Shown: in pieces, positions 1,831 to 61,821 of the stretch
Layout of the letters: each line of letters starts with the position of its first letter
How positions within the stretch are numbered: position 1 is the first letter of the stretch
Assembly: GCA_965206985.1 (NCBI GenBank)
Contig: CBDBLF010000011.1
Span: 477,320 to 541,319 of the forward strand
Direction: 5' to 3'
From: Spirochaetota bacterium
GTDB lineage: Bacteria > Spirochaetota > Leptospiria > Turneriellales > CBDBES01
Length of the DNA: 64,000 nt
Translations under genes and position numbers: made by a program
The notes under the pieces: model-generated
Database searches by the model: none
The model's input: the letters and a program-made list of their open reading frames with translations, nothing else
What the model was told of the DNA's origin: nothing

Positions 1831-2026
1831 CTACTTAAGTTCGGTTTTACTTTTTTATTTTCCATACCAATCAACTGATATTTTGCCGTTGTTTTGTGGA
1901 GGTGAAGCTAAAATCTTTTTATCTGTCTTAATGTACAGTTTTTTATATCTTAACGTTGGCTTGCCTGCCAACACCTGGTTTAACCCCCGCCTGTGCCCGA
2001 AGGGTGAAAACTGGACAGTCTTTTTC

Positions 2027-4319: not shown

Positions 4320-4382
4320 AAACTAGAAAGGATGCTTTAATTCTCGTTACTGAATGACAGGAGTTTAGCCTTCCCGACCTTG

Positions 4383-6431: not shown

Positions 6432-7276
6432 CTCAAAGAATCTTTCAACTCGTTAATCATTCGTTTGGATTTCATATACTCTATGTTTAGAGACAATTTT
6501 TCTTTTTTTGATTCGTCTAAAAGGCCTAAGATATTACTCCCATCCACTTTATGAAGATAGTCACCTATATAAAAATTTCTGCGAACACCTTCCCAATCTG
6601 TATTCTTGTGATTAATAATTTGAAGTAGTAGGAAATAGTCTTCCATATAAATTTGATCATCATGATATATAAGAGAATCCACATCCAGCTTGTGAAGATT
6701 TAACATTACACTATGTAAAGGGATAAAATTGTTCTTAAAAAAATCTAAATATTTACGACCCCTTTTTTCAAAAGAAGTTTCCCGGCTTAGTCTCAGGTGA
6801 GTATTTTGATCATAAGTTGTTTTGTACACTCGGGCAACAGATATAGCTTTCTTAGATTCTAAAAGCCTACCTAGCAAATAAGCATAAGCATGCGACATCA
6901 ATAAATCATCGTAATCAAGAAATGCAGCATAATCCGTTCGAACTTTCTTAATAGATAAATTCATCATTTTTGAGCGAATATCTTTAAAATGGATTTTTCT
7001 AGTCGAGTAATGGTCAACTATAGGCACTACGTTAGTATGCCAAGGGATTTCATCTAGCAAGTTCTGGAGGTGTTGCTTTTGTAATTGATCTAAACCTTGG
7101 GTAGCTATTAATGGAATCACAATACAATCTTGCATAGTTGCTAATGAGTAAAGAGAGTTTTGTAATAATGTGAAGTCACCAGATCGGTGAAAGCGGATGA
7201 TTGTTGTTACTTTTGGGTATTTGTTTAATAAGATTGTACTTTGATTGCTTATAAAACATTGAGCATCAGTGCGCAT
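6428..7276 (-). CDS. GT-A fold glycosyltransferase-like protein
   Basis: 282 aa. KVTTIIRF near the N-terminus and FLDYDD (a DxD-like motif). Translationally coupled to the membrane protein. Confidence 0.55.
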   Translation of the reverse strand: MRTDAQCFISNQSTILLNKYPKVTTIIRFHRSGDFTLLQNSLYSLATMQDCIVIPLIATQGLDQLQKQHLQNLLDEIPWHTNVVPIVDHYSTRKIHFKDIRSKMMNLSIKKVRTDYAAFLDYDDLLMSHAYAYLLGRLLESKKAISVARVYKTTYDQNTHLRLSRETSFEKRGRKYLDFFKNNFIPLHSVMLNLHKLDVDSLIYHDDQIYMEDYFLLLQIINHKNTDWEGVRRNFYIGDYLHKVDGSNILGLLDESKKEKLSLNIEYMKSKRMINELKDSLR

Positions 7277-7327
7277 CCGAATATTTTTGAATCTGGTTTA
7301 ACCCCCTAAAACTGGACAGTCTTTTTC

Positions 7328-8101
7328 TTATTCTTTTAGATATTTCTCCTCATATTTTTGAGGTGTCACCCATCCTAAAGCTGAATGTGGCTTCATCGTA
7401 TTATAAAGATGGATAAACCTGAAGATACTTTTTTGAGCTTCTTCAAAGTTTTGATATTCTGATAAATTAATTTCTTTATATTTAATTGTTTTATTCAATG
7501 ATTCGGCATGAGCGTTTTCATACACATTACCACGACACATGGAAATATTGATTCTACTTTCTTCTAATAGAGCGATATACTCATTTGAGCAATATCTGAC
7601 GTCAGCATCAGTATGATGGTAGTAATTTTGTAAATCTCCTATTTCTCTTTTAAGCGAAAGAAAGGCTGCTATGACCAGTTGGGTGTTATTTTTATCAGAA
7701 ATGGCCGCTCCTACGATACGGCGACTCATAAGCCTCATGAGCAAAGCTAAATAGTGGTCTTTCGAATTAATATCAAAATAGGTTATATCGCCAACAATTA
7801 CCTTGAAGGGATCAGCTTGCACACTTTTAATCAAATTGGGATATTTTCTGAAATTATGCTTAGATTGAGTAGTTTTTGGCTTCAAAAACACCTTTTTAGT
7901 GCATAAAAGTCTATTTTCTTTCATAATTCGGTAAACTCGCTTCTTATTTATTGTAAAGCCTCTATCTTTTAGAATTTGCGTCATCGAGATATAGCCTACT
8001 TGGTTCAATTGATCACTAATTTCATGGATAGATTTTAGAATCGTTGAATCATCTTTCTTCTCCTTCGACTTATAATAATAAGTTGACTTTTCTAGTTTCA
8101 T
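7328..8101 (-). CDS. IS3-family transposase OrfB
   Basis: Protein identical to the other copies. Confidence 0.9.
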   Translation of the reverse strand: MKLEKSTYYYKSKEKKDDSTILKSIHEISDQLNQVGYISMTQILKDRGFTINKKRVYRIMKENRLLCTKKVFLKPKTTQSKHNFRKYPNLIKSVQADPFKVIVGDITYFDINSKDHYLALLMRLMSRRIVGAAISDKNNTQLVIAAFLSLKREIGDLQNYYHHTDADVRYCSNEYIALLEESRINISMCRGNVYENAHAESLNKTIKYKEINLSEYQNFEEAQKSIFRFIHLYNTMKPHSALGWVTPQKYEEKYLKE

Positions 8102-8472
8102 AACTCTGCAACTCCTTGTGATCCCAAATTCTGTGCTGAGGCTATTCTTGATAATTTCTCTTTTTGCCTGTATTCTTGAAGAAGTTTTTCCGTTTTTTTT
8201 AAAATCTGATTTTCTATCATTAAGTCAGATAAGGCCGATTCTAAATAGGAAATTTTTTTTCTCAATTCTAACTCAACCCCATTTTTATCTTCAAAGCCTT
8301 CGGAAACCAGCTGTCGCTTCCATCTCGATAAAGTTGCGACTGAAATCATCTCTCTCTTAGATATTTCTGCCGTGCTAGTCTGACCTGAAATCATCTCCAA
8401 AGCCAATCTCTCTTTTGCTTCCTTACTGTATCTTTGTCTTTTAATCATAGTTTTACCTCCTAAATTTAACAC
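8098..8472 (-). CDS. IS3-family transposase OrfA
   Basis: Protein identical to copy 2. The A8 tract is at 8193-8200. Confidence 0.9.
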   Translation of the reverse strand: MLNLGGKTMIKRQRYSKEAKERLALEMISGQTSTAEISKREMISVATLSRWKRQLVSEGFEDKNGVELELRKKISYLESALSDLMIENQILKKTEKLLQEYRQKEKLSRIASAQNLGSQGVAEL

Positions 8473-8970
8473 AATAAAGTGTCCAGTTTTAGGGGGTTAA
8501 ACCACGTCTCATAAAAAGATAAAAAGTTCTTGTAATCGTGATCGGCTAAATTGAGAGTATCTAGGGATGATTCAGAAAGGTATCATTATATGTGTAGATG
8601 ATGAAGCTACTTGAAATATTAGTTTATGTTTTATTATAAAATTTCCCATCATAAAAAGCCCTTATTTTTGCATTTATTATCGGTAAGTGTGAATTGAAAG
8701 TTGATTGTGGTCCAGCACAATGTGCAGCCACTCAAAGAGTGGGTATTCAAAGTTGATTAAAGGCAATTAAAAAACTTCGCTCAGAAATCTTTTAATTTTT
8801 TTGCCATAGCTAGAATCTGCTATTTTTGAAATAATTTGCATAAACCCAACTCCACAAAACAATGGAGTTTCAACTCACTATGACGCATAATATAACCAAA
8901 GAATTCATCAAGTTTTTTTCATTACCCTTGAGAGAAAGGAGAAGAGTTTGTTTTGGAGAGCTCTTCTAAC

Positions 8971-16233: not shown

Positions 16234-17007
16234 ATGAAACTAGAAAAGTCAACTTATTATTATAAGTCGAAGGAGAAGAAAGATGATTCAACGATTCTAA
16301 AATCTATCCATGAAATTAGTGATCAATTGAACCAAGTAGGTTATATCTCGATGACGCAAATTCTAAAAGATAGAGGCTTTACAATAAATAAGAAGCGAGT
16401 TTACCGAATTATGAAAGAAAATAGACTTTTATGCACTAAAAAGGTGTTTTTGAAGCCAAAAACTACCCAATCTAAGCATAATTTCAGAAAATATCCCAAT
16501 TTGATTAAAAGTGTGCAAGCTGATCCCTTCAAGGTAATTGTTGGCGATATAACCTATTTTGATATTAATTCGAAAGACCACTATTTAGCTTTGCTCATGA
16601 GGCTTATGAGTCGCCGTATCGTAGGAGCGGCCATTTCTGATAAAAATAACACCCAACTGGTCATAGCAGCCTTTCTTTCGCTTAAAAGAGAAATAGGAGA
16701 TTTACAAAATTACTACCATCATACTGATGCTGACGTCAGATATTGCTCAAATGAGTATATCGCTCTATTAGAAGAAAGTAGAATCAATATTTCCATGTGT
16801 CGTGGTAATGTGTATGAAAACGCTCATGCCGAATCATTGAATAAAACAATTAAATATAAAGAAATTAATTTATCAGAATATCAAAACTTTGAAGAAGCTC
16901 AAAAAAGTATCTTCAGGTTTATCCATCTTTATAATACGATGAAGCCACATTCAGCTTTAGGATGGGTGACACCTCAAAAATATGAGGAGAAATATCTAAA
17001 AGAATAA
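16234..17007 (+). CDS. IS3-family transposase OrfB
   Basis: Identical 257-aa product. Confidence 0.85.
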   Translation: MKLEKSTYYYKSKEKKDDSTILKSIHEISDQLNQVGYISMTQILKDRGFTINKKRVYRIMKENRLLCTKKVFLKPKTTQSKHNFRKYPNLIKSVQADPFKVIVGDITYFDINSKDHYLALLMRLMSRRIVGAAISDKNNTQLVIAAFLSLKREIGDLQNYYHHTDADVRYCSNEYIALLEESRINISMCRGNVYENAHAESLNKTIKYKEINLSEYQNFEEAQKSIFRFIHLYNTMKPHSALGWVTPQKYEEKYLKE

Positions 17008-18968: not shown

Positions 18969-19074
18969 TATGTATTGCCTTTGGTTTAATTTATAAATCG
19001 CTTCGGCTAATTTTTAAATATAGTGGTTTAACCCCCGCCTGTGCCCGAAGGGTGAAAACTGGACAGTCTTTTTC

Positions 19075-19848
19075 TTATTCTTCTAGATATTTCTCCTCAT
19101 ATTTTTGAGGTGTCACCCATCCTAAAGCTGAATGTGGCTTCATCGTATTATAAAGATGGATAAACCTGAAGATACTTTTTTGAGCTTCTTCAAAGTTTTG
19201 ATATTCTGATAAATTAATTTCTTTATATTTAATTGTTTTATTCAATGATTCGGCATGAGCGTTTTCATACACATTACCACGACACATGGAAATATTGATT
19301 CTACTTTCTTCTAATAGAGCGATATACTCATTTGAGCAATATCTGACGTCAGCATCAGTATGATGGTAGTAATTTTGTAAATCTCCTATTTCTCTTTTAA
19401 GCGAAAGAAAGGCTGCTATGACCAGTTGGGTGTTATTTTTATCAGAAATGGCCGCTCCTACGATACGGCGACTCATAAGCCTCATGAGCAAAGCTAAATA
19501 GTGGTCTTTCGAATTAATATCAAAATAGGTTATATCGCCAACAATTACCTTGAAGGGATCAGCTTGCACACTTTTAATCAAATTGGGATATTTTCTGAAA
19601 TTATGCTTAGATTGGGTAGTTTTTGGCTTCAAAAACACCTTTTTAGTGCATAAAAGTCTATTTTCTTTCATAATTCGGTAAACTCGCTTCTTATTTATTG
19701 TAAAGCCTCTATCTTTTAGAATTTGCGTCATCGAGATATAACCTACTTGGTTCAATTGATCACTAATTTCATGGATAGATTTTAGAATCGTTGAATCATC
19801 TTTCTTCTCCTTCGACTTATAATAATAAGTTGACTTTTCTAGTTTCAT
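19075..19848 (-). CDS. IS3-family transposase OrfB
   Basis: 257 aa, ending YLEE versus YLKE elsewhere. Confidence 0.9.
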   Translation of the reverse strand: MKLEKSTYYYKSKEKKDDSTILKSIHEISDQLNQVGYISMTQILKDRGFTINKKRVYRIMKENRLLCTKKVFLKPKTTQSKHNFRKYPNLIKSVQADPFKVIVGDITYFDINSKDHYLALLMRLMSRRIVGAAISDKNNTQLVIAAFLSLKREIGDLQNYYHHTDADVRYCSNEYIALLEESRINISMCRGNVYENAHAESLNKTIKYKEINLSEYQNFEEAQKSIFRFIHLYNTMKPHSALGWVTPQKYEEKYLEE

Positions 19849-20219
19849 AACTCTGCAACTCCTTGTGATCCCAAATTCTGTGCTGAGGCTATTCTTGATA
19901 ATTTCTCTTTTTGCCTGTATTCTTGAAGAAGTTTTTCCGTTTTTTTTAAAATCTGATTTTCTATCATTAAGTCAGATAAGGCCGATTCTAAATAGGAAAT
20001 TTTTTTTCTCAATTCTAACTCAACCCCATTTTTATCTTCAAAGCCTTCGGAAACCAGCTGTCGCTTCCATCTCGATAAAGTTGCGACTGAAATCATCTCT
20101 CTCTTAGATATTTCTGCCGTGCTAGTCTGACCTGAAATCATCTCCAAAGCCAATCTCTCTTTTGCTTCCTTACTGTATCTTTGTCTTTTAATCATAGTTT
20201 TACCTCCTAAATTTAACAC
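19845..20219 (-). CDS. IS3-family transposase OrfA
   Basis: Identical 124 aa. The A8 tract is at 19940-19947. Confidence 0.9.
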   Translation of the reverse strand: MLNLGGKTMIKRQRYSKEAKERLALEMISGQTSTAEISKREMISVATLSRWKRQLVSEGFEDKNGVELELRKKISYLESALSDLMIENQILKKTEKLLQEYRQKEKLSRIASAQNLGSQGVAEL

Positions 20220-22840: not shown

Positions 22841-23998
22841 TTATTTCATAACCAAACGGCGCAATATCTGTATGCACTCATCAATTTGATCTTCCGTGTT
22901 CATTATGTGAGTAGAGAAACGTACTCCATCATCTCTTAATGCTGTGATGATTTTTTTCTGCTCTAAATGTTGATTTATTTGGGTACTATTTATGTTTGAA
23001 TGTCTTGCGACAATAATGCCTGTTAGGTTATTCTGTTTTGTTTTGTGTGCCCATATTTGAAAATCTAATTCAGTGAGCCTTTTTCTAAGTAGACTCGCTA
23101 GAGAATGAATGCGTTTCTGAACCATATCAAATCCAATCGTATCTAAAAACCTGAGAGCAGAGCAGAAATAAACCCAATCTAAATAGCTCGTTGATGAGTA
23201 ACAGAATCGATCTGCCCCTCGTTTCCACTCATTTTTATAGGGCAGGTAATTTTCGGAGTCAACAACAGAATCGGTTCCCCAAAAAATGGGCTCAACTTGA
23301 TCAATAAAATCTTTGGAAATATAAAGATAGCCAAGACCGAGTGGTCCAAGAAGCCATTTCCAAGCAGACCCACATAAGAAAGAAATATTATACTCTTTTG
23401 GGTGAAGTGGAATATGACCCAAACCTTGTGCAGCATCTACAACGAAAATAATATTATTCTGTTTACACAACATGCCAATTTCTTTCAAGGGGAGGCGGAT
23501 TCCTGTGAGCCAGTGTACAGCACTGATGCTGATAATTTTAGTTTGTTTTTTTATTTTTTTTTTGAGTAGACTTAAAAAATCTGCCTCATTTTCAAGTGCT
23601 TGGACGAATGTAATTTTTACCTTTTGGCTCTCAAGGGAAAGCCACGGATATACGTTACTTGGGTACTCCTTGCTTAAAAGAATGATTTCATCTCCTTGGG
23701 TTAGGGCAATCCCATGAGCTGCAAAGTTCATACCTTCGGCCGTATTGTGAATAGGAGTTACTTCGTCAGGGCTACAGTTTAAAAGTTTTGATAGATATTT
23801 TTTGATTTGACTTTTTATGTCGTGGTAAGCATATTCAGAAGCAAAATAAACAGCTTCAGAATATTGGTCCAAGGCCGCATGAACATCATTTAAAAAAGAA
23901 TCATGAGGAGCAGAAACTCCAGCACTATTGAGCCAAATATAGTTTTTGTTTATAGAAAATCCTTTGGAGATTATTTTCCAATTTATCTGATCAGACAT
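22841..23998 (-). CDS. Class V PLP-dependent aminotransferase / cysteine-desulfurase-like enzyme
   Basis: 385 aa. VVDAAQGLGH and GSAWKWLLGPLGLGYLY (PLP-lysine region). Overlaps kdsB by 8 nt. Confidence 0.7.
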   Translation of the reverse strand: MSDQINWKIISKGFSINKNYIWLNSAGVSAPHDSFLNDVHAALDQYSEAVYFASEYAYHDIKSQIKKYLSKLLNCSPDEVTPIHNTAEGMNFAAHGIALTQGDEIILLSKEYPSNVYPWLSLESQKVKITFVQALENEADFLSLLKKKIKKQTKIISISAVHWLTGIRLPLKEIGMLCKQNNIIFVVDAAQGLGHIPLHPKEYNISFLCGSAWKWLLGPLGLGYLYISKDFIDQVEPIFWGTDSVVDSENYLPYKNEWKRGADRFCYSSTSYLDWVYFCSALRFLDTIGFDMVQKRIHSLASLLRKRLTELDFQIWAHKTKQNNLTGIIVARHSNINSTQINQHLEQKKIITALRDDGVRFSTHIMNTEDQIDECIQILRRLVMK

Positions 23999-24743
23999 TT
24001 TTTCTTTTAAGAATATTTTCTACTTTCTTGATGTCTTCAGGGTGATCTACTCCAATAGATTCATAAGAAGTTTTATGAATATAAAGATTCATTCCAAAAT
24101 GTAAAATCCTGAGTTGCTCTAGGATCTCTGTTTTTTCCATAGGCGCTGGATTTAACTTTATAATCTTATCCAAGGCTTCTTTTGTGTAGGCATAGAGTCC
24201 TTGGTGTTTGAGTGCGTCTTTAGGCACAACATTTTTATTGTTTGGATATGGAATTGGACTACGAGAAAAATATAATGCCAAACTCTGAGCATTTACGACT
24301 ACCTTTACATAATTAGGGTTTAAAAAATCTTGATAGTTATCAAAGCGAGTAGCACTACTCGCTACCATATAGTGTGGATTTTTTTTGAGTGCTTTAATAA
24401 CTTCCTTAATTGTTTCTGCCCGTATCAATGGTTCATCTCCCTGTATATTAACATATAAATCAAACGATCCCAGCTGGCTTTTCACTTCTATGAGTCTATC
24501 CAGACCTGTTTTATGACTTGAGCGAGTCATATATACTCCTGCCTGAAACTTCTTAGCTTTTTTTTCAATCTCAGCAGAGTCTGTGGCAATGATAACTTGA
24601 TCAAGCTCCTCACACTTTAGAGCAGATTCATAAACATACTGGATCATTGGTTTTCCCATAATACTGGCAATCGGTTTCCCGGGGAAACGCTTTGAAGCCA
24701 TTCTGACAGGTATTATCCCTAAAACTCTCAGGGAAGGCGACAC
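23991..24743 (-). CDS. kdsB: 3-deoxy-manno-octulosonate cytidylyltransferase (CMP-Kdo synthetase)
   Basis: IIPVRMASKRFPGKP..GKPMI...VIIATD...NIQGDEPLI. GTG start at 24743. Confidence 0.85.
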   Translation of the reverse strand: MSPSLRVLGIIPVRMASKRFPGKPIASIMGKPMIQYVYESALKCEELDQVIIATDSAEIEKKAKKFQAGVYMTRSSHKTGLDRLIEVKSQLGSFDLYVNIQGDEPLIRAETIKEVIKALKKNPHYMVASSATRFDNYQDFLNPNYVKVVVNAQSLALYFSRSPIPYPNNKNVVPKDALKHQGLYAYTKEALDKIIKLNPAPMEKTEILEQLRILHFGMNLYIHKTSYESIGVDHPEDIKKVENILKRKNV

Positions 24744-24745
24744 AA

Positions 24746-26662
24746 CTAAATTTCTGAAGTTGAGAGGCTATCTTGAGTAGGAATATCTGAATCTGTTTCA
24801 ATATCTTTAGAAGGAGGCTCATTCGCGAAAGGTTGAGCCTTGGTATTTCCCAACAATCGTTTTACTTCCATTTCATTCAGATTTCCAACGCCCCTTAGGT
24901 TTCCACTTTCTATTTGATATTTGAGTGCTAGAGAATAGCAATATGCCTCGGTGATGGCCTCTTTTATTTTTCGACCAGAGAGTTTCTTCTTCCTGTCAAG
25001 TTCACCACCAAGTGACAAGACATCCTCCATATTTAAGACGATATTTTTCCCTTCTTTCATGCTAGCAATCAGGGTAGCTAAGTTTGAAACTATTTTTTGT
25101 AGAGAAGAGAGAATTGCTCTTTTAAGGACACTTGTTTGAGAGTTAATTTTTGATTGTAGTACTGTCTCTCTCTTTGATTGCTCAATATAACTCCCTTGGG
25201 GGTCACTTTTCAGATCTTTTAGCTCTTTAACCATACTAGAATATTCCTCAAAGGTTTGATCAATATTTCGGCTAGAAGTGATGAGCTCTGGCAATATTCT
25301 GGAATAATCTTTCTTGACACCGTAAGAAGTGTCGATGTTATAATGAACTTGTTTTGTTATTAAGACAGGAGAGTACTCAAAATCAAACTCCTTGAAATAC
25401 ATAGCGGACAAGAAGCCTTTATCAAGGTCTTCTAGAGAGGAATGGTAATGTTTGGAATCATGTTTCTCTCTCATTTTCTTGGGCCCCAGTTTACTCATGA
25501 GGAGCTTTCCATATTGATATTCTTTTGTTTCTGTGATCGGATCATTGTCATCTTCCTCTTCCTCCTTACTTGTATCTGACCCATCAGAGTTTTCTTCTGG
25601 TTCATTTGGTTGATTTATAAACACCATTGCTTTACAGGCTTCTCCAATAACTCTATTTCCTAGCGAAGCTTCAGGGTCAAAACCAATATAATTTTGAAAA
25701 GCCTTGGATGTGGGCTCGAAAATAGCTTTCGCATCACAACAAATAATTAAAAAATAATTTTTCATGGCAATCTTCAAAACATGATTAATAATTTTAATCA
25801 TTTCTTTCACTTTTTCTTTAAAAGCGTCTTTCTCCTCTGGAAATTCTTGAGTATATGCTTGATACAATCGATTCACAATTGTTGGTGTGGTTGAAATCCA
25901 TGGAGACAGATAGTATAATTTCAAATAAAAGTCTTTGATGGGTTCAATAACTTTCGTAATACTGATGTCCCCATCAGAACTGCTTTGTAAAGCCTCGTCA
26001 ATTTTATTAAAATAAGAAAAATTATAAAGAGAGTGAAGGTGATCAAGTATTTCCAGAAAAATAGGATTTTCCTCATCCAATTTTTCGATTATTTTCTGGA
26101 TTCCTTGTTGATTATCATCTATAAAATGATGACCAGTAAAAAAATAACTTAGGTTCCCGTGCAAGAGTAGTAATGCTGATTGTAATTCTTCTACAATAAA
26201 CTTTGCAAAGTTTTCCTTGATCTTATTCCCTGTGAAGCTTGTAGTTCCGGATAACGAAGCTTTTATTCGGAAAAAAAGTAAATCTAAAAAACCTTTTTTA
26301 GGCTTTTGGTACCACTTGTCTTGGCTTTTCTTGGATTTTTTTCGTGACTTTCCAGAAGCGACACCACGATGAGATGTTTTTTGCGATCTACTCGGGATAT
26401 CCCTAAAACGATCATCAGAAGCAATAGCCCTGGACTTTCGGAAAGAAGAGGTTTTTTCCTTACCAAAAGTCTTTTCTTTGAGAATTTCACCACCACTATT
26501 TTTGAATTTCTCGAGCATTGTCGCTCGCTCATCAGCAGAAATGTTATCCATCCCGATAGCATCCCGAGTTTTATCAAATTCGTATTTACCAGACATCGCT
26601 AAGCTTAAAGAAAGAAGGAAGCATATTCCTGTCCCAACGCATGAACCGACAAACTCTCCCAA
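24746..26662 (-). CDS. Hypothetical protein (638 aa; basic S/K-rich region and an acidic EEEEDD patch)
   Basis: Long ORF with no family recognised. Its stop is 2 nt from the kdsB start. The true start may be the internal Met near 26596. Confidence 0.5.
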   Translation of the reverse strand: MGEFVGSCVGTGICFLLSLSLAMSGKYEFDKTRDAIGMDNISADERATMLEKFKNSGGEILKEKTFGKEKTSSFRKSRAIASDDRFRDIPSRSQKTSHRGVASGKSRKKSKKSQDKWYQKPKKGFLDLLFFRIKASLSGTTSFTGNKIKENFAKFIVEELQSALLLLHGNLSYFFTGHHFIDDNQQGIQKIIEKLDEENPIFLEILDHLHSLYNFSYFNKIDEALQSSSDGDISITKVIEPIKDFYLKLYYLSPWISTTPTIVNRLYQAYTQEFPEEKDAFKEKVKEMIKIINHVLKIAMKNYFLIICCDAKAIFEPTSKAFQNYIGFDPEASLGNRVIGEACKAMVFINQPNEPEENSDGSDTSKEEEEDDNDPITETKEYQYGKLLMSKLGPKKMREKHDSKHYHSSLEDLDKGFLSAMYFKEFDFEYSPVLITKQVHYNIDTSYGVKKDYSRILPELITSSRNIDQTFEEYSSMVKELKDLKSDPQGSYIEQSKRETVLQSKINSQTSVLKRAILSSLQKIVSNLATLIASMKEGKNIVLNMEDVLSLGGELDRKKKLSGRKIKEAITEAYCYSLALKYQIESGNLRGVGNLNEMEVKRLLGNTKAQPFANEPPSKDIETDSDIPTQDSLSTSEI

Positions 26663-33241: not shown

Positions 33242-34039
33242 ATGAAAAAGATTAAAGAAACTTTAGAAGAAATATTCTATGGTGTTCGACCTTTAGATGA
33301 AATTTCAAAGACTACCGGTTTCTATGGCTCAGATATTATCTATCTTTCACAGAGGTCACCGCATATACGACTAAAAAATATTATTCAAAAAGCTCGACGA
33401 TCGGGTGCAAATATTAAATTCACAACCTCACTAGAAATTGACCAATTATCTCTGGGGAAAAAACATCAGGGAGTTTTACTTGTTCGTAGTGAAAAGATTT
33501 CTTACCCTAACATTAAAATAGAGGAGATTATTTCCCAGCCTTCTGGGCTTTATGTTTTAATTGAACGCTTGAACGATCCTCAAAATTTAGGTTCAATTGT
33601 CCGTTCGATGGCAGCGTTTGGAGCCGAAGCATTGGTCATGAATAAAAAAAAGACGCCACCTTTAGGGCAGGTTGTTTGGAAGGTCTCTGCAGGAGCATTA
33701 TCTCAACTCCCTGTTTTGTGGGCGAATGGATGTCAGAATTTCATAACGAAATTAAAAGAGAAATCAAAAAATCAAATAAAATCTTGTTTCATAGGGGCAA
33801 GTCTTTCAGGCGAACCAATGTGCGTGAATAGATTAAAAGAAATACACCAAGAGCATAAAAAAATTTTTTTGGTTTTAGGAGATGAAGAGCGTGGGATATC
33901 AAGAGGTCTTCTGAATGAATTAGACTTTTTGTTACGAATTCCTCATAGCCCAAAAATTAATAGTTTGAATGTTGGAGTTGCTACGGGTATTCTATTACAT
34001 TCACTCTCACTTCCTCAAAATTATGCCTCAAAATTATGA
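33242..34039 (+). CDS. rlmB: SpoU/TrmH-family 23S rRNA 2'-O-methyltransferase (RlmB-like)
   Basis: DPQNLGSIVRS, LVLGDEERGIS and SLNVGVATGILLH motifs. Confidence 0.75.
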   Translation: MKKIKETLEEIFYGVRPLDEISKTTGFYGSDIIYLSQRSPHIRLKNIIQKARRSGANIKFTTSLEIDQLSLGKKHQGVLLVRSEKISYPNIKIEEIISQPSGLYVLIERLNDPQNLGSIVRSMAAFGAEALVMNKKKTPPLGQVVWKVSAGALSQLPVLWANGCQNFITKLKEKSKNQIKSCFIGASLSGEPMCVNRLKEIHQEHKKIFLVLGDEERGISRGLLNELDFLLRIPHSPKINSLNVGVATGILLHSLSLPQNYASKL

Positions 34040-36375
34040 TGGAAAATATTGGTCATGTAATTGTTTTAGGTGCCGGAATTTTGCAAACCCCGTTGATCGA
34101 AGAAATTAAAAAATATGGTGGCTATTCTCTTGTTATTGATAAAAACCCCTACGCTCTAGGAATAAAAAAAGCAGATTATTTTTTGGAAGCCTCTACAAAA
34201 GAGGCACAGGAGATCATTTGTAAACTAGATTCCTTATCTTTTCGATCAGAAATAACTCATTGCGTTACTGTAGGAACCGATATGACATCAACCTTAGCTC
34301 ATGTGAACGAACACCTTGGCTTAGAGGGGCTGATGGTATGGCAAAGCGAAGTTACTTCACACAAAGGCAAGATGAGAAAATTTTTAAAAACGGCGGGTGG
34401 CCTCCCACAACCAGAATTTTACTGTAGCTCTGACAAAAATGATGTCCATAGATGGCTTGTTTCTGAAATAAATCAAAAAGAAAAAGAAAGTCGTTTTGTT
34501 TTAAAGCCTGTTGATAACATGGGTGCTAGAGGAGTTATTTACTTTGAAAATATCATGGATATAAGTTTCGCTTTCGAATTAGCCCAAAAAGAATCAGCGT
34601 CGCAAGAAATCATTGTCGAGGAGTATATCGAAGGGGATGAAATATCCGTAGACGCTCTGATCTATGATGGACGATGCTTTCTCACGGGTGTTGCTGATCG
34701 AATCATTCAAAGAGAAGAATCAATGTATTTTGTTGAAACAGGGCATAATATGCCTACTCGACATAATCGAGGCGTTATTCAAAAAATTCAACATACGATG
34801 CAAGCGATTGCTGATGCTCTGGGTTCTCCAAAAAAGCCCTATCATGGCCCGCTCAAAGGTGATCTAAAATATACGAAACAAAACAACATTATTGTGGGCG
34901 AAGTTGCTTCTCGGTTATCGGGAGGCTTTATGAGCACGCATACATTCGAGCATGCAACGGGAGTCAATCTGATGAAATTATATCTCAACTTAATCACAAG
35001 AAATAAAACTTCATTTTTTGATATTGTCCAAAATATTGGTTACACATCAGTGTGCATTGAACGCTCCATTTTGGCAGAGCCCGGACAACTAAAAGTAAGT
35101 AGTAGACCATCCAAAGAGTATTTTAGTTCCCAAAAGAAAGAAAATCAAGAAACAAAATTATGTGAATTTTTTCTTAACTGTGGCGAAGGGGATATTATAG
35201 AACCTGTCAAAAATAATGTTGGTAAATATGCCCACGTTATTATTCAGTCAAACTCTCTTGAAAATGCAGAAGCCTTGTGGGCAGATTTGAGTCAAAAGGT
35301 AATTCCTCATACAGAACCCCCTTCCTTTACACCGAGAGAGTTAAGAAAGCAAGCAGTTAAAAAATTTCATCCAAAGTATTGTTGGGCTTGTAAAATATGT
35401 GATGGGTTAAATTGTGCCTCGTCTGTTCCCGGTATGGGAGGAGTGGGGAACATGCAAACTTTTCAAGAAAATAACAAACTCCTCCGTAATATCAAAATTT
35501 TACCTAACTATCTCAATAGAGACAAAAAGAATAATTCAAGAGAAGAAGAAAAGATTACCATAAATACAGATATTTTAGGAATTTCCATGGGAGCACCCAT
35601 TTTGACCGCTCCTATAACGGGTAGTCTCTCAAACATGGGGGGTAGCATTTCGGAATGGGAATACGCCTTCGAAACAGCAACGGCGGCAAAAGCGTTGGGT
35701 CTCATTCCAACTTTTGGGGACGGGGCCAGCCCTGACAAATATTGGGTTGGTTTAAAAGTGATTCAAAAGCTAGGGGTTGGTCTTCCTGTATTTAAGCCGA
35801 GAAAAGATTTAGCGGAGCTAAAAATACGAATTAACGAAGCAGAAGAGATGGGTGCCAAGGCATGGGGGATGGACGTGGATGGTGTTTGGTTTACAACGAT
35901 GCGGGCAAAAGCTCAAAAAACTCAAAGAAAAACATATAAAGAATTGGTTCACCTGAAGGAATCCTCTTCATTGCCCTTTTTTCTGAAGGGCATTATGAGT
36001 ATTTCTGATGCAGAGATTGCTTGTGAGGCAGGTGCGGGAGCAATTATTATAAGCAATCATGGTGGGCGGGTATTTGATGGTATGCCTGCAACTGCTGAGG
36101 TGCTTCCTCGGGTTGCTGATTTTGTCAAAAAAAAATATCCTGCGGTTGATATTTTAGTCGACGGGGGCATTCGCTCAGGAAGTGATTTGTTTAAGATGAT
36201 TGCTCTTGGTGCAAAGGCTGTCTTAATCGGAAGACCCATTGTCATTGCTACAGTAGCTTATGCTCGATTTGGAGTTTACGATCTACTCAGAAAATACATT
36301 GATGAGTTTAGAGTGGTTCTTAAAGTCATGGGATTATCTTCTTTGAATGAGGTTCAGAGAAGTCATATTAGGTAA
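34036..36375 (+). CDS. Fusion protein: ATP-grasp ligase domain + Cys-rich linker + FMN-dependent alpha-hydroxy-acid dehydrogenase/oxidase-type TIM barrel
   Basis: The N-terminal ~430 aa are ATP-grasp-like (VIVLGAG..., KPVDNMGARGV, EEYIEGDEISVD). Then CWACKICDGLNCASSVPGMGGVG, followed by AIIISNHGGR...VDGGIRSGSDLFKMIALGAKAVLIGRP. Confidence 0.65.
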   Translation: MMENIGHVIVLGAGILQTPLIEEIKKYGGYSLVIDKNPYALGIKKADYFLEASTKEAQEIICKLDSLSFRSEITHCVTVGTDMTSTLAHVNEHLGLEGLMVWQSEVTSHKGKMRKFLKTAGGLPQPEFYCSSDKNDVHRWLVSEINQKEKESRFVLKPVDNMGARGVIYFENIMDISFAFELAQKESASQEIIVEEYIEGDEISVDALIYDGRCFLTGVADRIIQREESMYFVETGHNMPTRHNRGVIQKIQHTMQAIADALGSPKKPYHGPLKGDLKYTKQNNIIVGEVASRLSGGFMSTHTFEHATGVNLMKLYLNLITRNKTSFFDIVQNIGYTSVCIERSILAEPGQLKVSSRPSKEYFSSQKKENQETKLCEFFLNCGEGDIIEPVKNNVGKYAHVIIQSNSLENAEALWADLSQKVIPHTEPPSFTPRELRKQAVKKFHPKYCWACKICDGLNCASSVPGMGGVGNMQTFQENNKLLRNIKILPNYLNRDKKNNSREEEKITINTDILGISMGAPILTAPITGSLSNMGGSISEWEYAFETATAAKALGLIPTFGDGASPDKYWVGLKVIQKLGVGLPVFKPRKDLAELKIRINEAEEMGAKAWGMDVDGVWFTTMRAKAQKTQRKTYKELVHLKESSSLPFFLKGIMSISDAEIACEAGAGAIIISNHGGRVFDGMPATAEVLPRVADFVKKKYPAVDILVDGGIRSGSDLFKMIALGAKAVLIGRPIVIATVAYARFGVYDLLRKYIDEFRVVLKVMGLSSLNEVQRSHIR

Positions 36376-36389
36376 AATAGCAATAAAAG

Positions 36390-38042
36390 ATGAAAAAACA
36401 AATATTTTTTAAATGGTTTTTCTTTCTCATCTTTGTTTGTGGAGAGCTTATACTTACAGGAGTGCACACACAGGAGTTAGTTTTCCAGCAATCAAGAAAA
36501 AAAGCCGGGGTTCAAAGTTTATCATTCAATTCATCATACAATGAGTACATGCCTTTTATTAGCCCTGACGGAAGTTTTTTATTATTCCAGTCAGATCGTC
36601 CTGATGGTAGCCTTGATTCTGGAGACTCTGATATTTGGATGTCCCGCAGAGATACTAGATTTCTCGATGAAATTATTTTTTTACCCCCCGAGAATGTTGG
36701 GGTTCCTGTCAATACTCTATTTCTAGAAGGGATGTCTTCTGTTTGGTTTGAGTCAAAAAACCAGTGGTATCTTTACTTCACAAGTATTTTAAGTAAACAG
36801 CGCGATAATGGAATTGGAGAGACTGATATTTTCTATTCTTTTCATAAGGATGGTGTTTTTTCTAGGCCACTTCCCGTTGAAGCGATCAATACCCTATTTC
36901 ATGATAGAATGCCCTACGTAGCGTTGGATGGCTCTATGTTATTTTTCACTTCAAATAGACCGGGTGGTTATGGAGGTGAAGATATTTGGATATCAGAATA
37001 TGATAAAAATAAAAGAGAATGGAGGAAACCATACAATGCGGGTGATCGTATTAACACAAAATATGATGAGAGCTCGCCAGCTATCCATAGAAATAAAGTA
37101 TCCCTTTATTTTGTCTCAAACAGAAGGGGCGGATACGGTGGTTTTGATATTTATCGTTCACAAAAAAAGGAGTTACCACAGGGCAGTCTATGGACAAAAC
37201 CAAGAAACCTTGGCAATGAGTATAATTCACGATACGACGAAGAGGGCATTGGTTTATCTGGAGCCGGAGAGTATATTTATTTTTCCTCCAACCGAACACA
37301 AGGAAAAGGCTTATTCGATATTTATCAGCACAAACTGAGATTTGAATTTAGGTCTCAACTACCTGTTATATTTGTTGGTAATGTCTATATTAAAGGCACC
37401 AAAAAAGGAATTGAAGCAAATATAAAAATCTCCAATCAAGGTCTTGAGCATAATTTGGCAACCAACTTGCCCGAGGGAGATTTCTCGGTTCAACTCCAGA
37501 GTAATGATGTGTATCATATTCAGGTTTCTGCCCCCGGTCATAAGTCTCAGCAATATAAGCTAAACCTCAGAGATGTTATCGAACATAACAAACGAAGAAG
37601 AAAAGTTTTTTTCCTTGATAGAATTGAACAAAGCATGGTACCTAAAGACAGTATGATATACAAAGACAAAATGATGCCAGGCTCTCAAAATAATTTAAGG
37701 GAAGAGGTAATAAAGAAGCCTCTTGAACTATTTTATTTTCCCACAAATATTATAACAGTTGAAAAAATTGATAAACAAATAAAGAAGATATACTCAATCT
37801 GGAAGAAAGACAAAACAAAACAAGTTGTTGTTGAAGGACATTCAGGGAGGGAAGGTAACTCTAAAAAACAAAAAGAAATATCTCGTAAGCGATCGTTTTT
37901 TATTAGGGCCGAGTTATTAAAAACAGGTGTACCAAAAGAACAGCTACTTCATCATTGGTATGGTTTTGCTAGACCGGTTTCTTTTGAGGTGGATTCTGTC
38001 TCTCGGGCCAAAAATAGGAGGGTTGAGGTGTATATTTATTGA
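36390..38042 (+). CDS. Exported TolB-like beta-propeller repeat protein with C-terminal OmpA-family peptidoglycan-binding domain
   Basis: Signal peptide. Repeated P..SPDG..L.F.S.R.GG.G..DI units. C-terminal ...NRRVEVYIY. Confidence 0.75.
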   Translation: MKKQIFFKWFFFLIFVCGELILTGVHTQELVFQQSRKKAGVQSLSFNSSYNEYMPFISPDGSFLLFQSDRPDGSLDSGDSDIWMSRRDTRFLDEIIFLPPENVGVPVNTLFLEGMSSVWFESKNQWYLYFTSILSKQRDNGIGETDIFYSFHKDGVFSRPLPVEAINTLFHDRMPYVALDGSMLFFTSNRPGGYGGEDIWISEYDKNKREWRKPYNAGDRINTKYDESSPAIHRNKVSLYFVSNRRGGYGGFDIYRSQKKELPQGSLWTKPRNLGNEYNSRYDEEGIGLSGAGEYIYFSSNRTQGKGLFDIYQHKLRFEFRSQLPVIFVGNVYIKGTKKGIEANIKISNQGLEHNLATNLPEGDFSVQLQSNDVYHIQVSAPGHKSQQYKLNLRDVIEHNKRRRKVFFLDRIEQSMVPKDSMIYKDKMMPGSQNNLREEVIKKPLELFYFPTNIITVEKIDKQIKKIYSIWKKDKTKQVVVEGHSGREGNSKKQKEISRKRSFFIRAELLKTGVPKEQLLHHWYGFARPVSFEVDSVSRAKNRRVEVYIY

Positions 38043-38090
38043 TGTTTTGTGTGTTGAACACCACTAAACATCGTTGTCGCACTTTAAAGA

Positions 38091-38486
38091 ATGTTATCAG
38101 AAAAAGACATGGATTTAATTACTCAGCATATTGTCATGCCTGAAAACCTCAATGCAAATTATCATATGTTTGGTGGTCACTTGCTTGCTTGGCTAGATAA
38201 AGACCTCTACATATTCACGGCCACAAGGCTTGGTTGTAGTTTTTTGGTTACTGGTGCTATGAATAATATTCGCTTTAAAAATCCTGCTTACCTGGGGGAA
38301 ATTATACGTTTTTATGGAAAGGTTAAAGAAATCAGAAAAAGTAGTGTCATCACGACTGGCTTGGCAATCGCTTTTAATCCAGAAACTGAGGGTACTCGAG
38401 AAATTATTGAGTGTGATATCACTTTCGTTTCTGTGACAACTCAAGGAAAAGTCACTAGAATAAAAGAGAGAAAATCAAAAGAGTGA
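38091..38486 (+). CDS. Acyl-CoA thioesterase (hotdog fold, YciA-like)
   Basis: [22 protein letters not shown] motif, 131 aa. Confidence 0.7.
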
Positions 38487-41129: not shown

Positions 41130-41895
41130 TTAATCAAAGTTTCTATTTGCGATGAATAATTCTTGTATAGACCACTTATGATTCGTCATTTCTGTAGCCA
41201 TTGCTGGGGTGATTTGAATTGGTTTTCCTCCCTCATACTCAGCTAGACTTGAATGTGGAAGGCAGAAATTGTAATAATTAGCAACAAAAGAATTATGCCC
41301 CTGCATATATTTGAATTTTTTTGAAAAACCCTGACTTTTACGCTCTATTCTATGATTGTGTTGGCGAAGAGTCAAATTATTCCTTTCTACAGCAAAGGTG
41401 TTCATCTGATGACTTACTGAAGAGTTTGCAATATATTCATCTAGTAGCTTTTGATCACCAAAGATTAGAGATTTGTCAACTTCCTTACATCTCCCTTTTT
41501 CTATTCTCTTAATTATTTGCCCATAACATAGAGATTTGGGTGATTGAAGCTTTCTAGTCATTGAGTCAAATTTACCATAAACTGAAAGAATGGCATCACT
41601 ATATCCCTCATATCCATTCAGAGGTAATCAAAAATTTATCTTCCCTCTTTGGCTTACTTCTTGTTTTTACCTTGGTCAGTAACTTTCTAGCATTCACTGA
41701 GGTCCTCTTGCCTGTTATATGCGCTAAAATGAGCTTTTCTACAGGCAATACTGCAGTAAAAGTCCAGATATCCCCTATTTCATCACTTAATCGCTCAGTC
41801 TCTGATAGATTGTATTGTTTTTTAAAGACAAAACCCCAATGCTCGTCTAATTGAATTTCATTGAAAGACAGGTTTTTGTATATATTTTTTTTCAA
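41130..41895 (-). pseudogene. IS1-like InsB (DDE transposase) split by a 1-nt insertion
   Basis: An extra T at ~41617/41618 (CCATTCAGAGG versus CCATCAGAGG in copy B) divides it into ORFs 41608-41895 and 41130-41561. Confidence 0.85.
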
Positions 41896-42235
41896 CTTTT
41901 AGTGAATCTTCACCTGCTGCTTTAACCCAAGCAAGAACTGTATCCTTGCTGATACCAAAGACTCTTCCGGTAGCTCTAATGCCACAGCCCTCAACTGTGT
42001 TTTGTAATACCCGAGTAATGGTTTCTTTGCTTTTCTTGCGACGAAAAAAAATAGTGCCTTTATTCTCTGAAAAGCATCTACCACAAGCGGTGCACTTTAA
42101 ATAGGCTATTTGTTTGTACTTACCAGACATATAAGCAAAGCGCACATTTCCTTCATTTACCTTATGATACTTATGGCAGTCTGTATTTTGACAGCTAAAA
42201 CCACTTGTATCAAAGGTATATTTTCTTTTGTTCAT
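41858..42235 (-). CDS. IS1-like InsA (zinc-finger + HTH)
   Basis: 125 aa identical to copy B (C..C...C..C: CQNTDCHKY...CTACGRC). The track ORF is extended upstream into the IR. Confidence 0.8.
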   Translation of the reverse strand: MNKRKYTFDTSGFSCQNTDCHKYHKVNEGNVRFAYMSGKYKQIAYLKCTACGRCFSENKGTIFFRRKKSKETITRVLQNTVEGCGIRATGRVFGISKDTVLAWVKAAGEDSLKVEKKYIQKPVFQ

Positions 42236-42322
42236 AATGAGACATAACCTTAATTTAAGAGAGATAATCAATTCCTTTTTTAAGTTGGAAACTTTGATTA
42301 AATATGACACGACCCAATTTCT

Positions 42323-60716: not shown

Positions 60717-61481
60717 TTAATCAAAGTTTCTATTTGCGATGAATAATTCTTGTATAGACCACTTATGATTCGTCATTTCTGTAGCCATTGCTGGGGTGAT
60801 TTGAATTGGTTTTCCTCCCTCATACTCAGCTAGACTTGAATGTGGAAGGCAGAAATTGTAATAATTAGCAACAAAAGAATTATGCCCCTGCATATATTTG
60901 AATTTTTTTGAAAAACCCTGACTTTTACGCTCTATTCTATGATTGTGTTGGCGAAGAGTCAAATTATTCCTTTCTACAGCAAAGGTGTTCATCTGATGAC
61001 TTACTGAAGAGTTTGCAATATATTCATCTAGTAGCTTTTGATCACCAAAGATTAGAGATTTGTCAACTTCCTTACATCTCCCTTTTTCTATTCTCTTAAT
61101 TATTTGCCCATAACATAGAGATTTGGGTGATTGAAGCTTTCTAGTCATTGAGTCAAATTTACCATAAACTGAAAGAATGGCATCACTATATCCCTCATAT
61201 CCATCAGAGGTAATCAAGAATTTATCTTCCCTCTTTGGCTTACTTCTTGTTTTTACCTTGGTCAGTAACTTTCTAGCATTCACTGAGGTCCTCTTGCCTG
61301 TTATATGCGCTAAAATGAGCTTTTCTACAGGCAATACTGCAGTAAAAGTCCAGATATCCCCTATTTCATCACTTAATCGCTCAGTCTCTGATAGATTGTA
61401 TTGTTTTTTAAAGACAAAACCCCAATGCTCGTCTAATTGAATTTCATTGAAAGACAGGTTTTTGTATATATTTTTTTTCAA
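60717..61481 (-). CDS. IS1-like InsB (DDE transposase)
   Basis: 254 aa. QLDEHW, TSDGYEGY and VERNNLTLRQHNHRIERKSQGFSK motifs. The track start is TTG inside the A8 tract. Confidence 0.85.
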   Translation of the reverse strand: MKKNIYKNLSFNEIQLDEHWGFVFKKQYNLSETERLSDEIGDIWTFTAVLPVEKLILAHITGKRTSVNARKLLTKVKTRSKPKREDKFLITSDGYEGYSDAILSVYGKFDSMTRKLQSPKSLCYGQIIKRIEKGRCKEVDKSLIFGDQKLLDEYIANSSVSHQMNTFAVERNNLTLRQHNHRIERKSQGFSKKFKYMQGHNSFVANYYNFCLPHSSLAEYEGGKPIQITPAMATEMTNHKWSIQELFIANRNFD

Positions 61482-61821
61482 CTTTTAGTGAATCTTCACC
61501 TGCTGCTTTAACCCAAGCAAGAACTGTATCCTTGCTGATACCAAAGACTCTTCCGGTAGCTCTAATGCCACAGCCCTCAACTGTGTTTTGTAATACCCGA
61601 GTAATGGTTTCTTTGCTTTTCTTGCGACGAAAAAAAATAGTGCCTTTATTCTCTGAAAAGCATCTACCACAAGCGGTGCACTTTAAATAGGCTATTTGTT
61701 TGTACTTACCAGACATATAAGCAAAGCGCACATTTCCTTCATTTACCTTATGATACTTATGGCAGTCTGTATTTTGACAGCTAAAACCACTTGTATCAAA
61801 GGTATATTTTCTTTTGTTCAT
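61444..61821 (-). CDS. IS1-like InsA (zinc-finger + HTH)
   Basis: 125 aa. Overlaps insB by 38 nt. Confidence 0.85.
   Translation of the reverse strand: MNKRKYTFDTSGFSCQNTDCHKYHKVNEGNVRFAYMSGKYKQIAYLKCTACGRCFSENKGTIFFRRKKSKETITRVLQNTVEGCGIRATGRVFGISKDTVLAWVKAAGEDSLKVEKKYIQKPVFQ

Follow-up and report, generated by a model that had tools for sequence, protein, structure and literature searches.

A conserved spirochaete fusion of an ATP-grasp ligase with a four-cysteine FMN barrel, and its possible connection with flagellin glycans

The locus described here raises the question of what a single polypeptide made of an ATP-dependent carboxylate-amine ligase and a flavin-dependent oxidoreductase might do. 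It lies in a 64,000-nucleotide stretch of DNA from a Spirochaetota bacterium (Leptospiria, Turneriellales; assembly GCA_965206985.1, contig CBDBLF010000011.1, positions 477,320 to 541,319), referred to below as the window, in which a 779-amino-acid open reading frame (ORF) at 34036-36375 on the forward strand joins an N-terminal ATP-grasp domain to a C-terminal barrel dependent on flavin mononucleotide (FMN). A first-pass annotation made from the sequence alone had described two enzyme domains in this one ORF; the ORF is confirmed, that reading holds in its main points, and the motifs quoted at that time (CWACKICDGLNC, NHGGR, DGGIRSG and LIGRP) were all recovered where they had been placed. 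The protein is almost certainly a real, conserved two-domain enzyme, kept throughout Leptospirales and allied spirochaetes, where it is without meaningful annotation and unstudied. Both halves come from well-known superfamilies; nothing characterised matches the fusion, the four-cysteine (Cys4) module or the altered active site, and the gene is a core gene of Leptospira, pathogenic species included. The features of the fusion gene are as follows:

34036-36375 (+): whole 779-amino-acid fusion ORF including the stop codon, from the ORF call; an identical protein (P0001) is present in public data
34036-35319 (+): N-terminal ATP-grasp domain of L-amino-acid-ligase (LAL) type, residues 1-428, from Pfam, PDB profile and Foldseek matches
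34504-34536 (+): KPVDNMGARGV, the ATP-binding Lys157 strand and glycine-rich loop, a family signature invariant in fusions, Spirochaetia proteins and standalone forms
34897-34944 (+): GEVASRLSGGFMSTHT, the E289-x-A-x-R293 catalytic motif of LAL-type ATP-grasps with the LSGGFMS signature, from invariant columns
35161-35304 (+): LAL_C2-like C-terminal subdomain of the ligase, residues 376-423, a weak match to PF18603
35320-35379 (+): inter-domain linker, residues 429-448, variable in the alignment, with a helix at 433-443 in the secondary structure of the model
35377-36372 (+): FMN-dependent (beta/alpha)8 barrel of alpha-hydroxy-acid-oxidase type, residues 448-779, from PF01070, AlphaFold2 and Foldseek
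35380-35415 (+): CWACKICDGLNC, the C449-x2-C452-x2-C455-x4-C460 motif (residues 449-460) with invariant cysteines, a putative metal or Fe-S site
35980-35994 (+): FLKGI, family-invariant, with Lys651 equivalent to Lys230 of glycolate oxidase in an alignment with the spinach enzyme
36052-36069 (+): SNHGGR (residues 673-678), with His675 and Arg678 equivalent to His254 and Arg257 in the same alignment
36160-36237 (+): DGGIRSG (residues 709-715) to LIGRP (residues 730-734), FMN phosphate-binding motifs, from invariant columns

A protein search with the whole fusion returned 722 homologues, the best 120 of which are nearly all of 740-810 amino acids, with 96-100% query coverage and 39-67% identity, and come from Leptospira, Turneriella, Leptospiraceae and other Spirochaetota metagenome-assembled genomes (MAGs). 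A scan of one genome per species with ATP-grasp-specific patterns found at least 589 loci, of which the best 80 were taken; 78 of these could be parsed, and locus counts below refer to them. The best 80 include cultured Leptospira interrogans, L. noguchii, L. borgpetersenii, saprophytic Leptospira and Brachyspira innocens, as well as Leptonemataceae and Brevinematia MAGs, and the fusion is present in the complete Turneriella parva genome. The survey found an intact fusion, not two separate genes, at about 70 of the 78 loci, the ATP-grasp ORF running on into a C-terminal domain that bears CxxCxxCxxxxC and SNHGGR, and this recurrence in independent loci indicates that the fusion is genuine and old. 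The genome of the window does not represent any species in the scanned set; the closest locus, in a 'Leptospiria bacterium' MAG (L008), has 62% identity over the ATP-grasp half and shares the gene order. In a neighbour-joining tree rooted with glycolate oxidase, the 23 fusion C-domains form one clade apart from 55 standalone relatives, consistent with one fusion event.

That an assembly error or frameshift joined two genes is thus extremely unlikely. Split or truncated entries do exist (P0009 with 494, P0017 with 601 and P0121 with 402 amino acids), but they come from short or long-read MAG contigs, whereas complete genomes of cultured Leptospira and of Turneriella parva carry the intact gene, and inspection of the window found no long homopolymer at the domain junction. 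The GC content of the gene (0.394) is near that of the window (0.368), so the gene is not compositionally foreign; this and the identity of its neighbours agree with the earlier description of a gene among housekeeping genes and not in a foreign cassette. The architecture had not been recognised from a characterised pathway, and a literature search likewise found no characterised pathway with an ATP-grasp plus FMN barrel protein and no paper on the function of the fusion. Literature searches on LA2659 (the L. interrogans orthologue), on the architecture, on the spiro-SPASM protein described below and on Leptospira mutants gave nothing functional beyond the induction of LA2659, which rises 2.8-3.6-fold with macrophages.

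The N-terminal half had been taken for a complete ATP-grasp domain, and Pfam, profile-against-PDB and Foldseek matches agree. Pfam places ATP-grasp_4 at residues 154-301 (3e-13, 50 bits against a cutoff of 27) and also matches ATP-grasp_3, which, with FMN_dh in the C-terminal half, recovers both parts of the architecture. Against the PDB, a profile of the N-domain family matched 3vot (the LAL BL00235; 4e-26) and 4dim (5e-26) over nearly the full length, with lower-ranked matches to RizA, BacD, PurT/PurK, Ddl/VanA, cyanophycin synthetase and PylC. The full-length AlphaFold model, a check that had been suggested with the annotation, has a predicted local distance difference test (pLDDT) score of 89 overall and mostly above 90 in the N-terminal half, for which Foldseek gives TMt values of 0.85 with 3vot_B, 0.76 with 4dim, 0.74 with RizA and 0.69 with BacD. 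Residues K157, E195, E202, E289 and R293 do not vary among 23 fusions or in the wider family, and nucleotide/Mg-binding and catalytic roles are inferred for them from their alignment to BL00235. The GEVASRLSGGFMSTHT motif aligns with 'IEVGARIGG' of that protein, and its region has invariant columns at E289, A291, R293, L294, S295, G296, G297, M299, S300 and T303. The match to PF18603 (LAL_C2) is below the cutoff in the window protein (2e-4, 22 bits against 29.4), although the 3vot alignment spans this region and the family member P0267 exceeds the cutoff (9e-17, 61.5 bits).

The N-terminal half therefore resembles the L-amino acid ligases (BL00235, 3vot; RizA, 4wd3; BacD, 3vmm) and 4dim in its three-domain ATP-grasp fold, a putative LAL C-terminal subdomain and the Lys, Glu and E-x-(G/A)-x-R residues common to both. 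It differs from LALs in having about 17-18% identity to them in structural alignments and in the invariant motifs KPV.NMGARGV, YF.E.GH.MP, KGD and GE.A.RLSGGFMS, whose NMGARGV, GH.MP, KGD and LSGGFMS elements are specific to its own family and lack counterparts in LALs; nor are LALs fused to a flavoenzyme. This half is a complete and presumably active carboxylate-amine ligase of the LAL branch.

The C-terminal half scores 179.8 bits with PF01070 (FMN_dh; 1e-52), over the cutoff of 24.9, and its AlphaFold2 model, built with 59 homologues, has a pLDDT of 91.8 and a predicted template modelling score (pTM) of 0.91. Its best Foldseek matches are glycolate, mandelate and lactate oxidases (TM about 0.77). 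It shares with FMN-dependent alpha-hydroxy-acid oxidases (glycolate oxidase, Hmo, L-lactate oxidase and LldD) the fold (TM about 0.77-0.8), the FMN motifs and the catalytic set, which in comparison with spinach glycolate oxidase comprises Lys230 (K651), His254 (H675), Arg257 (R678) and Asp157 (D613/D615), all invariant in 23 aligned fusions. The barrel had been called complete, and this holds for the FMN-binding motifs and the His/Arg/Lys/Asp set but not for Tyr24, Tyr129, Arg164 and loop 4. The segment bearing Tyr24 has been exchanged for the Cys motif, the Trp108 region for GDGA and 'QLYVY' (Tyr129) for (I/F)KPR, and a deletion of about 37 residues has removed Arg164 and the lid loop (loop 4). 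The barrel gains, in turn, the N-terminal Cys4 motif, followed by VPGMGGVG at residues 464-471, and invariant NMGG, GDGA, KPR, DxD and TM.

None of the NCBIfam equivalogs compared was reached: PRK11197 scored 112.7 against a cutoff of 376, MftD 108.8 against 470.85, LldD 100.8 against 550, lactate oxidase 93.4 against 645.5 and type 2 IPP isomerase 43 against 281.3. With Tyr24, Tyr129, Arg164 and loop 4 missing, the name 'alpha-hydroxy-acid oxidase' describes a resemblance and not membership. The PDB entry 6a3t is, by its title, mandelate oxidase R163L with 2-hydroxy-phenylacetamide, which would link the loss of that Arg to amide substrates; set beside the missing carboxylate clamp, it suggests that the substrate of the C-domain may be an amide or another non-canonical acid.

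The cysteine cluster had been read as a linker, but it is instead an integral, invariant N-terminal element of a large and uncharacterised family of FMN barrels, to judge from alignments that extend to standalone proteins of about 338 amino acids. A search with the C-domain alone gave more than 7,500 matches, in which the fusions are followed by such standalone proteins from Clostridia, Desulfosporosinus, Desulfotomaculum, Thermodesulfovibrionales and Caldimicrobium, with 38-44% identity to the window C-domain at 96-97% coverage. They start with C-x2-C-x2-C-x-G-x2-C-(A/S)-G-x-V-P-G-M-G-G, continue into a short-loop FMN_dh barrel and share with the fusion C-domain the invariant motifs PGMGG, NMGG, GDG, KPR and DxD. 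The four cysteines are invariant in the 23 fusions and in the 59-sequence C-domain alignment that includes standalone proteins. The obvious options for this putative site, where pLDDT is low at residues 450-454 in the metal-free model, are an electron-relay Fe-S centre or a structural Zn.

No solved structure in the PDB and no curated NCBIfam model was found for this Cys4-FMN family, and the neighbourhoods of three standalone genes had no common partner. Standalone members P0128-P0239 are named 'alpha-hydroxy-acid oxidizing protein', 'L-lactate oxidase' or '4-hydroxymandelate oxidase' in databases, names that are probably wrong since the canonical substrate-binding residues are missing. Whatever the role of the fusion, the standalone group, with thousands of proteins mostly from anaerobes, is large and unannotated. 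A possibly parallel fusion of an Fe-S domain to an FMN barrel was seen near a standalone ATP-grasp gene at L088 (12280-13251, -), where a zf-CDGSH iron-sulfur domain is joined to a glutamate-synthase-type barrel.

Some lineages carry altered barrels. Brachyspira fusions at L047, L076 (753-2933) and L085 (6989-9160) retain a C-domain of barrel length in which the Cys motif is gone and FSNNNKY stands in place of the catalytic His/Arg motif, so that their flavin domain appears to be a pseudoenzyme. A separate clade (L054, 6989-9220; L083, 6692-9247; L087, 880-3105) keeps the Cys motif but has SNRGGR for SNHGGR and GIG for GMGG. Both sets of variants point to the ligase half as the constant part of the protein and to the redox step as one that can be lost.

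Several known systems combine related parts. In flavocytochrome b2, a haem domain N-terminal to the FMN_dh barrel carries electrons from the flavin; this enzyme is among the structure-database matches and follows the same logic of a redox module before the barrel, although the module there is a cytochrome b5 domain and here a 12-residue Cys4 motif, a putative electron relay. MftD is an FMN_dh enzyme acting on an alpha-amino amide and gives a precedent for an amide in place of a free carboxylate; the C-terminal half is similar to it (2.4e-31), but its score far under the cutoff means that it is not MftD, and there is no mycofactocin gene context. VanH/VanA and PylC/PylD pair a 2-oxo/2-hydroxy (or amine) redox step with ATP-grasp ligation on one building block, but as separate proteins with NAD(P)-dependent dehydrogenases and with neither FMN nor Cys4; VanA and PylC are weak matches of the fusion family. 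Pyruvate carboxylase also holds an ATP-grasp and a TIM barrel in one chain, and Foldseek aligns both, but with a root-mean-square deviation above 20 Å the arrangement is unrelated, its barrel being a metal-dependent carboxyltransferase and its ATP-grasp a biotin carboxylase. SfmE (SO_3265) of Shewanella oneidensis, a 412-amino-acid single-domain protein of the ATP-grasp_4 carboxylate-amine-ligase type encoded in a flagellin-modification operon, where the modification is of nonulosonate type (PMC3765264), can be compared with the fusion as another ATP-grasp_4 protein.

In the mechanism proposed for the fusion, the ATP-grasp half would activate a carboxylic acid as an acyl-phosphate and join it to an amine, and the FMN half would interconvert the alpha-hydroxy (or alpha-amino) and alpha-oxo states of the same acyl unit. 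The most likely substrate of the FMN step would be the amide product or a non-canonical acid, since the clamp for a free carboxylate has disappeared. Electrons would probably pass through a metal or Fe-S centre on the four cysteines, in parallel to the haem domain of flavocytochrome b2; ligation could come before the redox step or after it. The pTM of the full-length model (0.89) suggests a fixed packing of the two domains, which fits coupling but does not prove it. A coupled ligase and oxidoreductase working on one acyl unit is, on this evidence, the probable nature of the protein.

A lead on the product comes from the wider ATP-grasp family of spirochaetes. An exhaustive phmmer search with the N-domain retained 244 representatives at E<=1e-30, which beyond the fusions comprise standalone proteins of about 400-416 amino acids and many proteins of 510-580 amino acids, aligned over their full length with 31-40% identity; the E-values of Spirochaetia proteins are 1e-60 to 1e-36, also at full coverage. 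The 510-580-amino-acid proteins, from Spirochaetia, Spirochaetales and Spirochaetaceae MAGs, consist of the ATP-grasp, LAL_C2 and a tail of about 130 amino acids. The Spirochaetia proteins of about 540 amino acids invariantly carry the same residue at 47 of the 58 positions where fusion N-domains are at least 95% invariant, and at 44 of these 47 the standalone forms of about 410 amino acids do not vary either. Mean identity in the ATP-grasp domain is 33-34% between groups against 40% within fusions, and tblastn gives 40-45% between a Spirochaetia ligase and some fusions. From the shared invariant positions and the moderate drop in identity between groups, the ATP-grasp halves are read as one isofunctional ligase family across Spirochaetota, and the ligase half thereby has a testable functional lead from other spirochaetes. 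The tail of the Spirochaetia proteins (residues about 410-544 of P0269 and its homologues) has conserved T..FLF, DWHG and LG.LFW.AFLRGG.QGG.W.IDT and no Pfam match; that it is a decayed FMN barrel was considered and rejected (hhalign probability 0.2%, E 0.3).

In four of four long Spirochaetia loci (L090, 2139-11307; L091, 2083-11409; L093, 3256-12221; L094, 2871-12242) the ligase gene belongs to an array of overlapping genes, present in part at the short locus L089, in the order radical-SAM/SPASM protein, unknown protein of about 320 amino acids, CTP_transf_3 protein, methyltransferase protein of 560-630 amino acids, ATP-grasp, Amidase_3, GerM and FlaA. These loci include an ATP-grasp member with only 34% identity to the query P0269. 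The radical-SAM protein is TIGR04321, 'spiro-SPASM protein', above the NCBIfam cutoff (6.7e-169); the methyltransferase protein combines a weakly PseG-like region (TIGR03590, 1.5e-10) with a UbiG-like O-methyltransferase domain, and the CTP_transf_3 protein has a weak likeness to KDO/nonulosonate cytidylyltransferases. A PDB sequence search with the unknown protein gave no match, and no published description of the array was found. In another lineage, a standalone ATP-grasp gene (P0245) precedes genes for a TPR protein, for a synthase resembling PseI/NeuB (3e-46) and for a GT11 protein.

On the basis of this array and of the NeuB/PseI-like neighbour of P0245, a role in flagellin glycosylation is proposed, in which the enzyme would install and tailor an N-acyl group derived from a 2-hydroxy or 2-oxo acid on a nonulosonic-acid-type sugar with which FlaB would be O-glycosylated. 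The model for this role is the flagellin glycan of Treponema denticola, 2-methoxy-4,5,6-trihydroxyhexanoyl-nonulosonic acid, a pseudaminic-type sugar bearing an amide-linked, 2-O-methylated 2-hydroxy acid. Its structure calls for a carboxylate-amine ligase, an O-methyltransferase and a redox step between 2-hydroxy and 2-oxo acid, which by analogy would be supplied jointly by the array and by the Leptospirales barrel. FlaB of Leptospira is O-glycosylated at homologous sites, and its glycans, which mediate core-sheath contacts, were of undetermined chemistry in papers from 2022 to 2026 (10.1101/2022.03.03.482903; 10.64898/2026.02.02.703089; PMC13144727). In Shewanella, flagellin is fully modified only when the ATP-grasp_4 protein SfmE is present (PMC3765264).

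If the proposal were true, the fusion would be a testable candidate gene for the O-glycans of the heavily glycosylated Leptospira flagellins, for which no biosynthetic gene is known and whose core-sheath contacts are required for motility. The assignment as a bifunctional enzyme is held with much more confidence than this particular role, which is possible but rather unlikely when judged by itself. Coupled enzyme and flagellin-glycan role taken as a whole form the best explanation offered here, held tentatively and at somewhat short of an even chance. A bolder version, in which the fusion is the missing tailoring enzyme of the FlaB O-glycan between filament core and sheath, its ATP-grasp half links a 2-hydroxy acid through an amide bond to a nonulosonic-acid-type amino sugar, and the Cys4-FMN half and its standalone relatives are a new class of Fe-S flavoenzymes acting on alpha-hydroxy- and alpha-oxo-acyl amides, is speculative and less likely again.

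The neighbours of the fusion genes were compared by clustering all ORFs of the 78 loci. No operon partner is universal to the fusion among them, and synteny is lineage-specific. In the window the nearest context is:

33242-34039 (+): upstream SpoU/RlmB-type RNA 2'-O-methylase gene (PF00588, 2.6e-31), given as context only
36390-38486 (+): PD40/OmpA-type envelope protein (PorE/CHU_0125-like) and 4HBT thioesterase genes, given as context from family matches

The overlap of the fusion start with rlmB, noted earlier, was confirmed: the ATG of the fusion ORF and the TGA of the methylase gene form ATGA, an arrangement shared only with the closest relative, L008. Both loci have cysS and rlmB upstream and the PD40/OmpA protein, 4HBT thioesterase and glyA downstream. 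The PD40/OmpA and 4HBT pair lies 3' of the fusion in four divergent loci (the window, L008, L019 and L026). Leptospira loci have mnmA at position -1 (19 loci, 16-25 nt upstream), a PilZ/DUF1577 protein at +1 (16 loci) and an RluD-like synthase at +2 (15 loci), and 11 Leptospira loci have a FlaA-family gene on the opposite strand some 6 kb upstream, which was counted in favour of a flagellar connection. Another clade has glpX and a GAF-PP2C protein as neighbours. A LipB-DUF309 gene is directly upstream of the fusion in L009, L010, L019, L025 and L026, and an LplA-B_cat protein of about 240 amino acids is encoded at -1 or -2 in the Turneriella group (L001, L011, L012, L014, L016 and L017); these proteins match PF21948 (3e-20 and 5e-28), and the two junctions measured (L014 and L019) are an overlap or a gap of 6-11 nt. 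The lipoyl/octanoyl-transferase superfamily recurs in this position in two separate lineages.

Several of these observations weigh against a flagellin-glycan role. Direct neighbours of the fusion are lineage-dependent housekeeping genes, with no nonulosonate, glycosyltransferase or flagellar gene in operon with it at any of the 78 loci, none of which contains a nonulosonate or glycosyltransferase gene. Neither the window nor any of these loci carries the eight-gene Spirochaetia array, and tblastn found no homologues of its spiro-SPASM, cytidylyltransferase-like or methyltransferase proteins in the window and the 15-kb fusion loci. The CTP_transf_3 gene of the window was considered as a nonulosonate cytidylyltransferase and rejected, as it scores above the equivalog cutoff for kdsB; it is the only cytidylyltransferase gene in the window. 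Within the array, the PseG-like and cytidylyltransferase-like matches are weak, and Amidase_3 and GerM beside the ligase suit a cell-wall role equally well. Judging from the Brachyspira and His-to-Arg variants, the redox step is dispensable in some lineages.

The linkage to flaA is not universal either. T. denticola transcribes flaA together with the four ORFs that precede it (PMC9481697), and a T. denticola-type metagenome contig (L092) was recovered through a published flaA-operon primer. The ORFs of its flaA unit (4314-8677, -) encode a glyoxalase, a phosphoglycerate kinase (PGK), Amidase_3, a GerM-like protein and then FlaA. An ATP-grasp gene in the T. denticola flaA operon (TDE1716-1712) was rejected on this contig, which has none there, and the presence of the ligase in T. 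denticola was not confirmed. The gene order of L092 indicates that Amidase_3, GerM and FlaA are a unit of their own, which the ligase array merely abuts.

The same coupled chemistry could instead serve a small metabolite or an envelope component unrelated to flagellin, such as a substituent of peptidoglycan or another envelope polymer, a pseudo-dipeptide, a 2-oxoacyl-amino acid or a compound of lipoate/2-oxo-acid metabolism. This is a credible alternative but again not a likely one. The housekeeping or envelope neighbours of the fusion speak for it, among them LipB-DUF309 (5 loci) or LplA-B_cat (6 loci) directly upstream with overlaps or gaps of at most 11 nt and the PD40/OmpA and 4HBT pair downstream in divergent loci, as do the cell-wall-type Amidase_3 and GerM genes that follow the Spirochaetia ligase and the free dipeptides produced by its nearest solved relatives. 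No neighbour is common to all lineages, however, LipB, RlmB and MnmA are ordinary housekeeping proteins whose genes often stand beside unrelated ones, and an array with cytidylyltransferase-like, PseG-like/O-methyltransferase and spiro-SPASM proteins would be left unexplained, as would the NeuB/PseI-like neighbour. Lipoyl/octanoyl-protein transferase genes upstream in 11 loci could equally be cited for a modifier of macromolecules, whose ATP-grasp would, like RimK or LysX, attach an amino or acyl group to RNA or protein for oxidation by the flavin domain. Three types of RNA-modification gene tightly linked to the fusion (rlmB in the window and L008, mnmA in 19 loci and rluD-like in 15) speak for it too. 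A macromolecule-modifying function is improbable: the ligase is nearest to ligases of free amino acids and not to RimK, LysX or TTL, Pfam and NCBIfam detected no RNA- or protein-binding domain, and the linked modification genes vary by lineage, as chance adjacency would give.

It would be no more probable that the two activities are independent and their fusion incidental, with the barrel an Fe-S-linked L-lactate or 2-hydroxy-acid:acceptor dehydrogenase of energy metabolism and the ligase unrelated to it. Standalone Cys4-FMN homologues are indeed common in anaerobes, one of their genes adjoins a lactate permease gene, and databases name them 'alpha-hydroxy-acid oxidizing protein' or 'L-lactate dehydrogenase'. 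Yet a fusion of single origin has been retained over a divergence of 39-67% identity, its model suggests packed domains, the canonical carboxylate binders of lactate and glycolate enzymes are missing, and the LldD, lactate oxidase and MftD models of NCBIfam are all far from being reached.

Other observations concern the rest of the window, in which Rfam and tRNA scans found nothing. An IS3-family element, made of a 124-amino-acid ORF and a 257-amino-acid rve/HTH_21 transposase ORF, is present in at least five copies within 20 kb (1976-3171, 7277-8472 and 19024-20219 on the reverse strand; 1-659 and 16234-17007 on the forward strand). The copies lie dispersed between genes of glycosyltransferases and of sugar-nucleotide metabolism, and their compared segments are 100% identical, which suggests recent transposition. 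At 22841-26662 (-), a 638-amino-acid ORF (24746-26662) without Pfam or NCBIfam match is followed after a 3-nt gap by kdsB and then by an overlapping SufS-like class-V aminotransferase gene, in an apparent operon. The ORFs at 41858-42310 (-) and 61444-61821 (-) have a common N-terminal sequence, NKRKYTFDTSGFSCQNTDCHKYHK, which suggests a second repeated element in the window, probably mobile.

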